Position numbers and translations under genes: made by a program. Under the pieces are notes generated by a model, which was not told where the DNA came from, searched no databases, and saw only the letters and a list, made by a program, of their open reading frames with translations. A stretch of DNA of 4,466 nt. Origin: a virus (lineage: Duplodnaviria > Heunggongvirae > Uroviricota > Caudoviricetes). The stretch lies in the IMG/VR virus record IMGVR_UViG_2695420589_000009; one strand, 5' to 3'. Position 1 is the first letter of the stretch, and every line of letters begins with the position of its first letter. Of this stretch, positions 1 through 4,466 are shown in pieces.

Positions 1-81
1 GATATTTGCGAGAATGCTACCGAGTATTGAAAACACCACTACAAATACATAAGCAAATCCCAACAAATAACCAACAAATAA

Positions 82-1164
82 TTGAAAAAATTAACAGTGG
101 CAATTTCTGCTGTAGCTGCATCAGTACTGATGGCGATGTCTGCTCAGGCAGCTGAAATTTATAATAAAGACAGTAACAAGCTGGATCTGTACGGGAAAGT
201 TAATGCTAAGCACTACTTCTCCTCTAATGATGCAGATGATGGTGATACTACTTATGCCCGTCTTGGCTTCAAAGGTGAAACCCAAATCAACGATCAACTG
301 ACTGGTTTCGGTCAGTGGGAATATGAATTCAAAGGCAACCGCGCTGAATCTCAAGGTTCCTCCAAAGATAAAACCCGTCTTGCCTTCGCTGGCCTGAAAT
401 TCGGTGACTACGGCTCCATCGATTACGGCCGTAACTACGGTGTAGCATACGACATCGGTGCGTGGACTGACGTCCTGCCAGAATTCGGTGGTGACACTTG
501 GACTCAAACAGATGTGTTCATGACTGGTCGCACCACTGGTGTTGCAACTTATCGTAACAACGACTTCTTTGGTCTGGTTGATGGTCTGAACTTTGCTGCT
601 CAGTATCAGGGTAAAAATGACCGCACTGACGTAACTGAAGCTAATGGTGATGGTTTCGGTTTCTCCACTACTTATGAGTATGAAGGATTCGGTGTAGGTG
701 CAACCTATGCTAAATCTGACCGCACTAATAATCAGGTTATCTACGGTAACAACAGCCTGAATGCATCTGGTCAAAATGCTGAAGTATGGGCAGCTGGTCT
801 GAAATATGATGCGAACAACATCTATCTGGCTACCACCTATTCTGAAACCCAGAACATGACTGTTTTTGGTAATAACCATATTGCCAACAAAGCACAAAAC
901 TTCGAAGTAGTTGCACAATATCAGTTCGACTTCGGTCTGCGTCCGTCCGTTGCTTACCTGCAATCTAAAGGAAAAGACTTGGGTGCGTGGGGTGATCAGG
1001 ACCTGGTTGAATATATTGATGTAGGTGCAACCTATTACTTCAACAAAAATATGTCCACTTTTGTTGATTACAAAATCAACCTGATTGATAAGAGCGATTT
1101 CACGAAAGCATCTGGCGTTGCTACCGATGATATCGTTGCTGTAGGTATGGTTTACCAGTTCTAA
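82..1164 (+). CDS. nmpC: Outer membrane porin, OmpC/OmpF/PhoE family, prophage-encoded NmpC/Lc(OmpD)-like; start codon appears to be TTG
   Basis: 360-aa ORF with a typical signal peptide ([23 protein letters not shown], cleavage after AQA), porin motifs and the beta-barrel C-terminal ...VYQF. The sequence matches my memory of E. coli NmpC almost along its whole length. Codon 82-84 is TTG and no Shine-Dalgarno is visible within 15 nt upstream. Confidence 0.9.
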
Positions 1165-1300: not shown

Positions 1301-1336
1301 NNNNNNNNNNNNNNNNNNNNNNNNNNNNNNNNNNNN
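1301..1336. other. Run of 36 N (assembly gap or masked bases) in the Q/porin intergenic region
   Basis: Literal n characters at 1301..1336. Confidence 0.99.
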
Positions 1337-3261: not shown

Positions 3262-3353
3262 ACGGCCTCCCTAACGGAAACCGCAGAATGCAGAAAATCG
3301 CAGGTGCATTTCTGCATCTGTGACAAGGTGATGAGTTCAGATTGTGGTCGCAT
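3258..3353 (-). CDS. Small ORF (31 aa), possibly YlcH-like, translationally coupled to ybcN
   Basis: My translation: MRPQSELITLSQMQKCTCDFLHSAVSVREAV. SD AAGGGG lies 6-7 nt upstream of its ATG. Its TGA overlaps the ybcN ATG (ATGA). Too short to call confidently from sequence alone. Confidence 0.4.
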   Translation of the reverse strand: MRPQSELITLSQMQKCTCDFLHSAVSVREAV

Positions 3354-3372
3354 TTAAGTCCCCTTAAATGCG
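3349..3372 (-). promoter_or_regulatory. 10-bp-stem hairpin (CGCATTTAAG / 4-nt loop / CTTAAATGCG) enclosing the SD and start codon of the small ORF
   Basis: Perfect inverted repeat. On the - strand mRNA the loop is GGGA (part of the SD) and the AUG lies in the 3' arm of the stem. Confidence 0.35.
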
Positions 3373-3483
3373 CAGAAGTCACCGGAGTTGTTCAGGCTCC
3401 GATGAGAGGATTATGGCGGATTGATTACGATAAATCAAAACTATCTTGAAGCCAAAACAGTGATCTTCGCTTTAAAAACCTTG

Positions 3484-3489
3484 TATACT
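3484..3489 (+). promoter_or_regulatory. Candidate -10 hexamer (TATACT) for the AT-rich cassette; no convincing -35
   Basis: TATACT lies 36 nt upstream of ATG 3526, preceded by TTG. The best -35-like element (TTGAAG, 3446..3451) is too far away to pair with it. Weak call. Confidence 0.2.
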
Positions 3490-3525
3490 TTCACCTAATC
3501 ACAGCCAGAACTATGGATCTAACCA

Positions 3526-3903
3526 ATGACCAACAAAGAAAACAAAGATAAATATATTAACAAGTTCAAGAAAGAGCTTTCAAAATATATACAACCAACT
3601 GCTGGAGTGGACATTCAATTATTTAACTCTAAGGATGGTGGTGGTGTAATTAAAGCCACTTTGAATAGAAGTGGAAAAAGAAAATCATCTATTGCTGGTA
3701 ATTTTACTAAATTAGGTGAGGCAATTACCTCGAGTGGGCAGAGGGTTTTTGGTGGTGATCTATCAAATGTGAATTTTTACGGAACAAATACGATTTTTGA
3801 TGGAGATACAATATTTTTAATTAAATCACCTGATTCAGAGGAGTGGTCATCACAAAAAGCTTCCAAAGACGTAGAGGGCATCGTATTTGGAGGGAAAAAA
3901 TGA
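3526..3903 (+). CDS. Hypothetical soluble protein, 125 aa, Lys-rich N-terminus and Gly-rich beta-like middle; first gene of the AT-rich cassette
   Basis: ORF in strongly AT-rich DNA with AT-biased codon usage. Only a weak SD (GGA about 8 nt upstream). No signal peptide or TM segment. Stop overlaps the start of the next ORF (ATGA). I recognise no family. Confidence 0.7.
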   Translation: MTNKENKDKYINKFKKELSKYIQPTAGVDIQLFNSKDGGGVIKATLNRSGKRKSSIAGNFTKLGEAITSSGQRVFGGDLSNVNFYGTNTIFDGDTIFLIKSPDSEEWSSQKASKDVEGIVFGGKK

Positions 3904-4328
3904 TTAACATTACTACTAAGGATGGCACTCAAGTCAGTGGTGAAGTAAGAGATCTAGTAATTCTTCTTGAAACTGATGGAAAAACGGTGTCTGATTATTT
4001 GCAGCCAATCCCTCCCAAAAAAGATACACACTGGAGCATGATTTTCATTCCGGTAGCAATTTATATACTACTTAATCTTGTATACATTATTGCTCACCCA
4101 TTATTTCCTGAAAAATATCTAAAAACATCAACATCTATATTTCTATTCATTTCCTTCATATTAAGTGCAATAGTAGCATATTTTGTTTTCCATAAGCATA
4201 AATCTGCCACTCTATCCATATGCAGCTTAGTGTTCTTAGTGTTAATTGTAGGTGCTAACGTAGGGTTTATCAGTTACAGCGACCTAACACAAAAAGCGAC
4301 GCAAAAATTAGATAGTTTGTCTAAATAA
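3900..4328 (+). CDS. Hypothetical small membrane protein, 142 aa, soluble N-terminal ~45 aa then three predicted TM helices; second gene of the AT-rich cassette
   Basis: ATG at 3900 preceded by SD GGAGGG with 5-nt spacing. Hydrophobic segments MIFIPVAIYILLNLVYIIAHPLF, SIFLFISFILSAIVAYFVF and LSICSLVFLVLIVGANVGFISY. The GTG at 3843 in the ORF track is an in-frame upstream extension that I reject. Confidence 0.75.
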   Translation: MINITTKDGTQVSGEVRDLVILLETDGKTVSDYLQPIPPKKDTHWSMIFIPVAIYILLNLVYIIAHPLFPEKYLKTSTSIFLFISFILSAIVAYFVFHKHKSATLSICSLVFLVLIVGANVGFISYSDLTQKATQKLDSLSK

Positions 4329-4335
4329 TTATGTT

Positions 4336-4356
4336 GCCATGCGAAGTATGCATGGC
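4336..4356 (+). terminator. Stem-loop GCCATGC / GAAGTAT / GCATGGC just after the cassette stop, followed by palindrome CCATTTAAAATGG (4371..4383); weak terminator candidate
   Basis: Inverted repeats are seen directly; no clean U-tract follows. Confidence 0.2.
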
Positions 4357-4435
4357 TGCATGTCTGCCTTCCATTTAAAATGGGCTAAGACCTATAACCC
4401 TAAATATTATTCTTTATTATCTTCTTTACCACTTC

Positions 4436-4466
4436 GGTGATGCTGCCAACTTACTGATTTAGTGTA
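4436..4466 (+). mobile_element. Left end (IRL) of insertion sequence IS1, truncated by the window edge
   Basis: GGTGATGCTGCCAACTTACTGATTTAGTGTA matches the IS1 left terminal inverted repeat and the following bases as I remember them. Only 31 bp are in the window. Confidence 0.7.

Follow-up and report, generated by a model that had tools for sequence, protein, structure and literature searches.

IS1 is a 768-bp element with an InsAB' transposase, and its insertions usually produce target-site duplications (TSDs) of 8-9 bp. In Tn9, two direct IS1 copies flank a segment and together form a composite transposon. Prophage DLP12 of Escherichia coli K-12 carries IS5 in nmpC and IS3 in renD, and rusA there can be activated by upstream IS2/IS10. 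According to Hawkey et al. 2020 (PMC7373316), Shigella reference chromosomes hold 229-348 IS insertions, of which 46-73% belong to IS1, the commonest element, and IS cause deletions and rearrangements in Shigella. A second study (PMC11251922) describes Shigella cscK and cscB as usually interrupted by IS1, IS3 or IS4.

The stretch of prophage DNA analysed here (4,466 nucleotides, hereafter the window) resembles both DLP12 and the degraded Shigella chromosomes. With DLP12 of K-12 it shares the argU/intD site (as seen in IS-free relatives), the nin-Q-porin-lysis backbone and crippling by IS; unlike DLP12, the window prophage has a different cassette between ybcN and P, its crippling element is an IS1 in replication gene P, and its porin coding sequence is intact. 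With IS-driven genome degradation in Shigella it shares the host, S. sonnei, the dominance of IS1, a cscK gene disrupted by IS1, and an IS copy at an inversion or translocation breakpoint. Our data suggest that the IS1 left end was very probably joined to the 3' end of P at a recombinant rearrangement breakpoint in a DLP12-site prophage of S. sonnei. The junction is one more instance of a well-described IS1 rearrangement and is already known in kind; the specific P::IS1::cscK joint is not described in the accessible text of PMC7373316 or PMC11251922. The features at the right-hand end of the window are as follows.

3526..4328, plus strand: AT-rich two-gene cassette (125 aa and 142 aa) in the ybcN-P slot, on the opposite strand, seen as open reading frames and as two hypothetical proteins in the relative L001
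4329..4435: spacer of 107 bp from the stop of cassette gene 2 to IS1
4382..4400, minus strand: terminator-like hairpin just downstream of the P stop (consensus scan, pattern match only)
4407..4435, minus strand: 3' remnant of the gene for replication protein P
4435..4436: breakpoint between prophage and IS1, from the empty site in L001 and L002 compared with the window
4436..4458: 23-bp terminal inverted repeat of IS1
4436..4466, plus strand: outer 31 nt of the IS1 left end (IRL, insA-proximal), matching annotated IS1A nt 1-31 at 31/31 positions

The initial annotation had read the last 31 bp of the window as the left end of an IS1 lying about 107 bp past the cassette, and both the identity and the distance hold, the latter counted from the cassette gene 2 stop at 4328. 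The terminal sequence, GGTGATGCTGCCAACTTACTGATTTAGTGTA, equals bases 1..31 of the annotated 768-bp IS1A of E. coli CV839-06 (L002 6372..7139), a reference copy whose IRL and IRR agree at 18/23 positions. Phage P1 records annotate a 100% identical sequence as 'terminal IR of IS1'. The window's 31-mer has the IRL characteristic of the IS1 family (GGTGATGCTGCCAACTTACTGAT...), reads rightwards out of the window and occurs there once; no IS1 right end was found within the window. Because none of 200 dinucleotide-preserving shuffles of the window matched the 31-mer, even with up to 3 mismatches tolerated, the match is not expected by chance. Sequence identity thus confirms 4436..4466 as the left terminal inverted repeat of an ordinary IS1.

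In IS-free relatives a minus-strand gene annotated as replication protein P comes immediately after the two-gene cassette, and comparison with them identified P as the gene that IS1 interrupts. The empty site in L001 and L002 reads CTTTACCACTTCG|CACCATCCCG where the window reads CTTTACCACTTC|GGTGATGC; the breakpoint is ambiguous by 1 nt, as G4436 could belong either to the empty site or to IS1, of which it would be the first base. The remnant, which aligns base for base with the annotated end of P in both relatives, retains the stop codon TAA (4407..4409), 8 full codons (SGKEDNKE, 4410..4433) and 2 nt of the preceding Arg codon. Its translation, SGKEDNKE followed by the stop, is identical to the C-terminal end of P in L014, a 237-aa protein that matches PF06992 (Phage_lambda_P) at E = 1.3e-48, and this continuity with an annotated, Pfam-supported gene identifies the interrupted target as a lambdoid P. 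On this alignment, IS1 cuts P 8 codons before its stop. Besides the P remnant, the 107-bp spacer contains an imperfect hairpin (4331..4361) and the terminator-like hairpin downstream of P. An open minus-strand frame within 4380..4466 runs from the IS1 left end in frame into the P remnant (ending …YTKSVSWQHHRSGKEDNKE and a stop) and is probably coincidental.

A megablast search with window positions 3300..4466 found most of the query covered in 46 of 5,426 complete E. coli genomes (RefSeq); the matches among those listed all end at window 4436, and the window junction, or any IS1 at the P site, was found in none of the 5,426. Exact scans for the junction gave no match in species-representative genomes and none in JGI metagenomes. 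Relatives were instead recovered by exact-protein look-up of the window proteins: the exact porin protein is indexed in 17,488 blocks, among them L004, which carries the junction. The identical junction is present in five other assemblies, comprising four chromosomes and one IMG/VR provirus contig.

CP049179.1 (L004/L015): junction-bearing chromosome
CP104423.1 (L013): junction-bearing chromosome
CP029794.1 and GCA_002073875.2 (L018): junction-bearing chromosome of Shigella sonnei 4303
JBEAAE010000002.1 (L022): junction-bearing chromosome
L024: junction-bearing IMG/VR provirus contig

S. sonnei 4303 is 100% identical to the window across all 4,431 aligned bases; judged by this identity, the window is therefore of the S. 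sonnei lineage. The assembly GCA_002073875.2 of this strain is an Ion Torrent/SPAdes draft scaffolded with MeDuSa (PMC6201595). Everything past position 4466 is read from these relatives, one of them the strain identical to the window. Three complete IS1 copies are found in this neighbourhood, called IS1#1, IS1#2 (the junction copy) and IS1#3 below. The elements that lie outside the window or in other strains are listed here.

L004 8843..9610: IS1#1, complete, in the same orientation as the junction copy, between essD and the porin gene
L004 14550..16680: IS21 (istA/istB), splitting the junction copy at nt 231 in each of the five other assemblies that carry the junction
L002 6372..7139 (E. coli CV839-06): independent IS1A in cassette gene 1, at about window 3671, with the 9-bp TSD TGAATAGAA

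In the relatives the left end belongs to a full element, as the initial annotation had anticipated. Rather than diverging from IS1 within 20-50 bp past 4466, the sequence follows it to nt 231, about 200 bp beyond the window end, in 5/5 other junction-bearing assemblies. At that point IS1 is split by an IS21 of 2,131 bp, 99.9% identical to annotated istA/istB and flanked by the 4-bp TSD ATAT, after which IS1 resumes at nt 228..768 and ends in its IRR. With the IS21 insert and the 4-bp duplication subtracted, the junction copy in the relatives is complete at 768 bp, with inverted repeats agreeing at 18/23 positions and a terminal 31 nt identical to those of E. coli IS1A and the phage P1 IS1. Its sister copies have the 8-9-bp TSDs of the family and its InsA zinc-ribbon, HTH_Tnp_IS1 and DDE_Tnp_IS1 domains; in L013, IS1#1 and IS1#3 encode a 232-aa product in which Pfam recognizes all three. 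Unlike typical IS1, the junction copy is interrupted in the relatives by the IS21 at nt 231, which splits its transposase genes, and this nesting inactivates it.

The far flank of the junction copy is not prophage DNA. Its right flank, CGCTTGCAGTAACGG, lies inside a gene annotated 'aminoimidazole riboside kinase' (cscK), just upstream of the oligosaccharide MFS transporter gene cscB, in the chromosomal sucrose locus. An 8-9-bp TSD had been expected around this IS1, but the flanks read ...TACCACTTC on the left and CGCTTGCAG... on the right, without a matching duplication, and the P-side flank TACCACTTC has no partner; the right-hand 9-mer pairs instead with IS1#3. The earlier proposal that IS1 had truncated the adjacent prophage DNA is borne out, in that P is cut and the rest of P, O, the immunity region and int do not lie across the IS in any of the five assemblies with the junction. 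Within 10 kb of the junction, none of the junction-bearing loci contains P-5' or O DNA. Because the TSD is absent and the far flank is cscK, the joint is therefore best read as a recombinant breakpoint and not as a simple insertion.

The right-hand flank could be traced to its origin. IS1#3 is a third complete copy, inverted and 3.6 kb beyond the junction copy; its IRL flank, CTGCAAGCG, is the exact reverse complement of CGCTTGCAG, and its far side carries the 5' part of cscK. The 9-mer CGCTTGCAG is single-copy in the intact kinase gene (9001..9009 of L023, the csc locus of E. coli E2865), and in L015 the two cscK flanks next to IS1, which face opposite ways, share these 9 bp and no more. Between IS1#2 and IS1#3 lie cscK-3', cscB, torI and two hypothetical genes, which is the native csc neighbourhood (torI prophage). 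The two repeats of the 9-bp TSD from one cscK insertion thus lie beside two different IS1 copies in inverted orientation, as is characteristic of an IS1-mediated inversion. Being a recombinant of two insertions, the junction copy is without the matching TSD of IS1 generally, though it is still an IS1. In L015, genes of IS1, IS3-family and IS4 elements stand beside the cscK fragments, in agreement with PMC11251922.

IS-free prophages of this type occupy the classical DLP12 site, at tRNA-Arg (argU)/intD beside fimZ, and the csc locus lies far from it on the chromosome, at argW. The P-IS1-cscK joint therefore brings together two regions that are normally well separated. A local adjacent deletion was rejected on the same ground, the IS-free prophage being at argU/intD and the csc locus elsewhere. 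A single replicative inversion giving rise to both IS1#2 and IS1#3 was also rejected, since reverse-complementing the inner (IRR) flank of IS1#3 (…CTGTCTTTT) does not give TACCACTTC.

Several steps may have led to the present arrangement. An IS1 would have inserted into cscK, and a local IS1-mediated inversion would then have flipped the segment holding cscK-3', cscB and torI. An IS1 may next have inserted into P, or an existing copy may have attacked P intramolecularly, and IS1-by-IS1 (homologous) recombination or replicative inversion could finally have joined the P-3' flank to the cscK-3' flank. Because the three IS1 copies differ by no more than 1 nt, the crossover is untraceable and we infer the order of these events. 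The rearrangement would have separated the late/nin/porin part of the prophage from P, O, the immunity region, pR and int, potentially leaving a remnant that could neither replicate nor excise, in which the ybcN-ninE-ybcO-rusA-ylcG-quuD operon would be without its native upstream promoter.

Alternatively, the window's own genome might hold a simple IS1 insertion, that is, a complete IS1 followed by a 9-bp TSD and then by the rest of P, O and the immunity region, as the ancestral state before recombination. This is compatible with the window by itself, the first event one would expect is a fresh insertion into P, and IS1 does insert simply nearby, as IS1#1 with its 8-bp TSD and the L002 IS1A with its 9-bp TSD attest. 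A simple insertion would, however, put TACCACTTCGCACC past the IS1 and not the cscK sequence, whereas cscK is on the far side in 5/5 other assemblies, including S. sonnei 4303 with its full identity to the window, and 0/5,426 complete E. coli genomes have an IS1 at the P site. Nor was a reciprocal junction found. It was defined as the IS1 IRR (...GGAGTCATTACC) followed by an 8- or 9-bp TSD (ACCACTTC or TACCACTTC, i.e. (T)ACCACTTC) and the rest of P (GCACCATCCCG), and this pattern occurred 0 times in IMG/VR and 0 times in the fetched loci; after a reciprocal inversion, the other flank of the partner IS1 would read AAAAGACAG (torI-prophage side). Six predicted truncated-P/IS1 fusion proteins, two for each of three P alleles (one with an 8-bp and one with a 9-bp TSD), were likewise absent from a collection of 15 billion proteins, an absence of little weight, as the allele or the called start may differ. 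On balance, a simple insertion in the window's genome appears unlikely, and we favor the recombinant breakpoint.

The second IS1 beside the window invites a comparison with Tn9. In the relatives IS1#1 ends 30 bp left of the window start; it is present in every junction-bearing assembly, as two fragments in the gapped draft L018 and complete in the others, and carries its own 8-bp TSD, CCAATTTT. IS1#1 and IS1#2 (L004, from 14319) are in direct orientation, 4,708 bp apart, and bracket the whole window. As in Tn9, then, two direct IS1 copies flank a segment (4.7 kb), and the window could lie inside a Tn9-like composite transposon that is mobile as a unit, with the 31-mer as the inner end of the right-hand IS1. 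Against this architecture stand the TSD of IS1#1, which indicates that it inserted separately, and the mismatch of the outer flanks, CCAATTTT and CGCTTGCAG. The segment was met only in its native prophage context, and the cassette is unmatched in 72,556 plasmid records. The bracketing pair is thus present, but unlike in Tn9 there is no shared outer TSD, no second location and no evidence of movement as a unit, which makes the composite reading extremely unlikely. That the 4.7-kb block (porin, Q, RusA and cassette) is a functional Tn9-like transposon able to reach plasmids or other Shigella chromosomal sites is, for its part, very unlikely. Counting the L002 IS1A, IS1#1 and IS1#2, three separate IS1 copies fall in this AT-rich neighbourhood of about 5 kb, across lineages.

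An assembly artefact (a repeat k-mer misattached at the contig end) or a solo dead IS1 fragment would suit a draft-like window that has 36 N at 1301..1336, shows a 278-bp gap near 83 not shared by any relative and ends only 31 nt into a repeat, but it is almost certainly wrong, as independent assemblies, some of them chromosome-scale, show the identical junction followed by the remaining IS1.

The two-gene cassette beside the junction is distinct in composition, with a GC content of 34% compared with 54% in the nin genes. Its proteins have no Pfam match above cut-off and no PADLOC match; the 125-aa protein is without a family, and the 142-aa protein is a predicted membrane protein with only a sub-threshold 7TM match. 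An Rfam search found nothing in the window. The exact allele of cassette protein 1 is widespread, being indexed in 12,488 blocks, and in 6,298/12,488 blocks the longest contig is 2-5 kb, a size that would fit short-read assemblies broken at IS1. At about window 3925 (a GG run), L004, L013, L015 and L024 lack 1 bp, which puts cassette gene 2 out of frame; the gene may truly be decaying there, or the homopolymer may have been misread in sequencing. Cassette gene 2 is intact in the window and in L018.

The initial annotation had suggested that IS1 may explain the absence of the expected DLP12-type neighbours on this side, and here the IS-free prophages speak against it. Between ybcN and P, K-12-type genes (ylcH-ybcM-ybcL-ybcK-ylcJ-emrE-ren) fill the slot in L003, L006, L010 and L011, whereas the cassette occupies the same slot, with P intact and no IS1, in L001, L008, L014, L016, L017 and L019-L021. 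Since IS-free prophages at argU/intD carry this very cassette between ybcN and P, the missing neighbours reflect module replacement and not the action of IS1.

Nor does the sequence favor the idea that an outward-reading IS end alters expression of the flanking genes. A consensus scan found no promoter-like site reading outward across the junction, and the known IRL promoter reads into IS1. An outward minus-strand transcript would meet the terminator-like hairpin at 4400..4382 (a pattern match only) and would then run antisense through the 0.8-kb cassette before reaching ybcN. We found no evidence that the window's IS1 end activates rusA or Q, the expression effects considered here being deduced from sequence.

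The recombinant breakpoint explains why the prophage segment ends abruptly, with IS1 cutting P and the remaining prophage not adjacent. It would also account for the tendency of short-read assemblies to yield this segment as a contig of about 4.7 kb. As a marker of the lineage, or of a large chromosomal rearrangement, the P::IS1::cscK joint could be useful. Some caution is needed in annotation, as the context of the cassette is not attributable to IS1, given that the same slot is used in IS-free prophages. Beyond correct annotation, the junction matters little.

Two further features of the window are a gap and a run of N. At 82/83 it is without 278 very AT-rich bp that lie directly upstream of the porin gene in every relative (L004 9724..10001). 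The resulting joint, AATAATT|GAAAAAATT, leaves the gene without promoter and 5'UTR and changes the ATG start to TTG. Only the window has this gap, which may have arisen in assembly or may be a deletion particular to the strain, silencing the porin. Window 1301..1336, between the porin gene and quuD, consists of 36 N, and all relatives, including L018, have a single G at that position (ATTACCCTTTATTTTT-G-GGGGCGTTG). The 36-N run is an assembly-gap placeholder and not real sequence.
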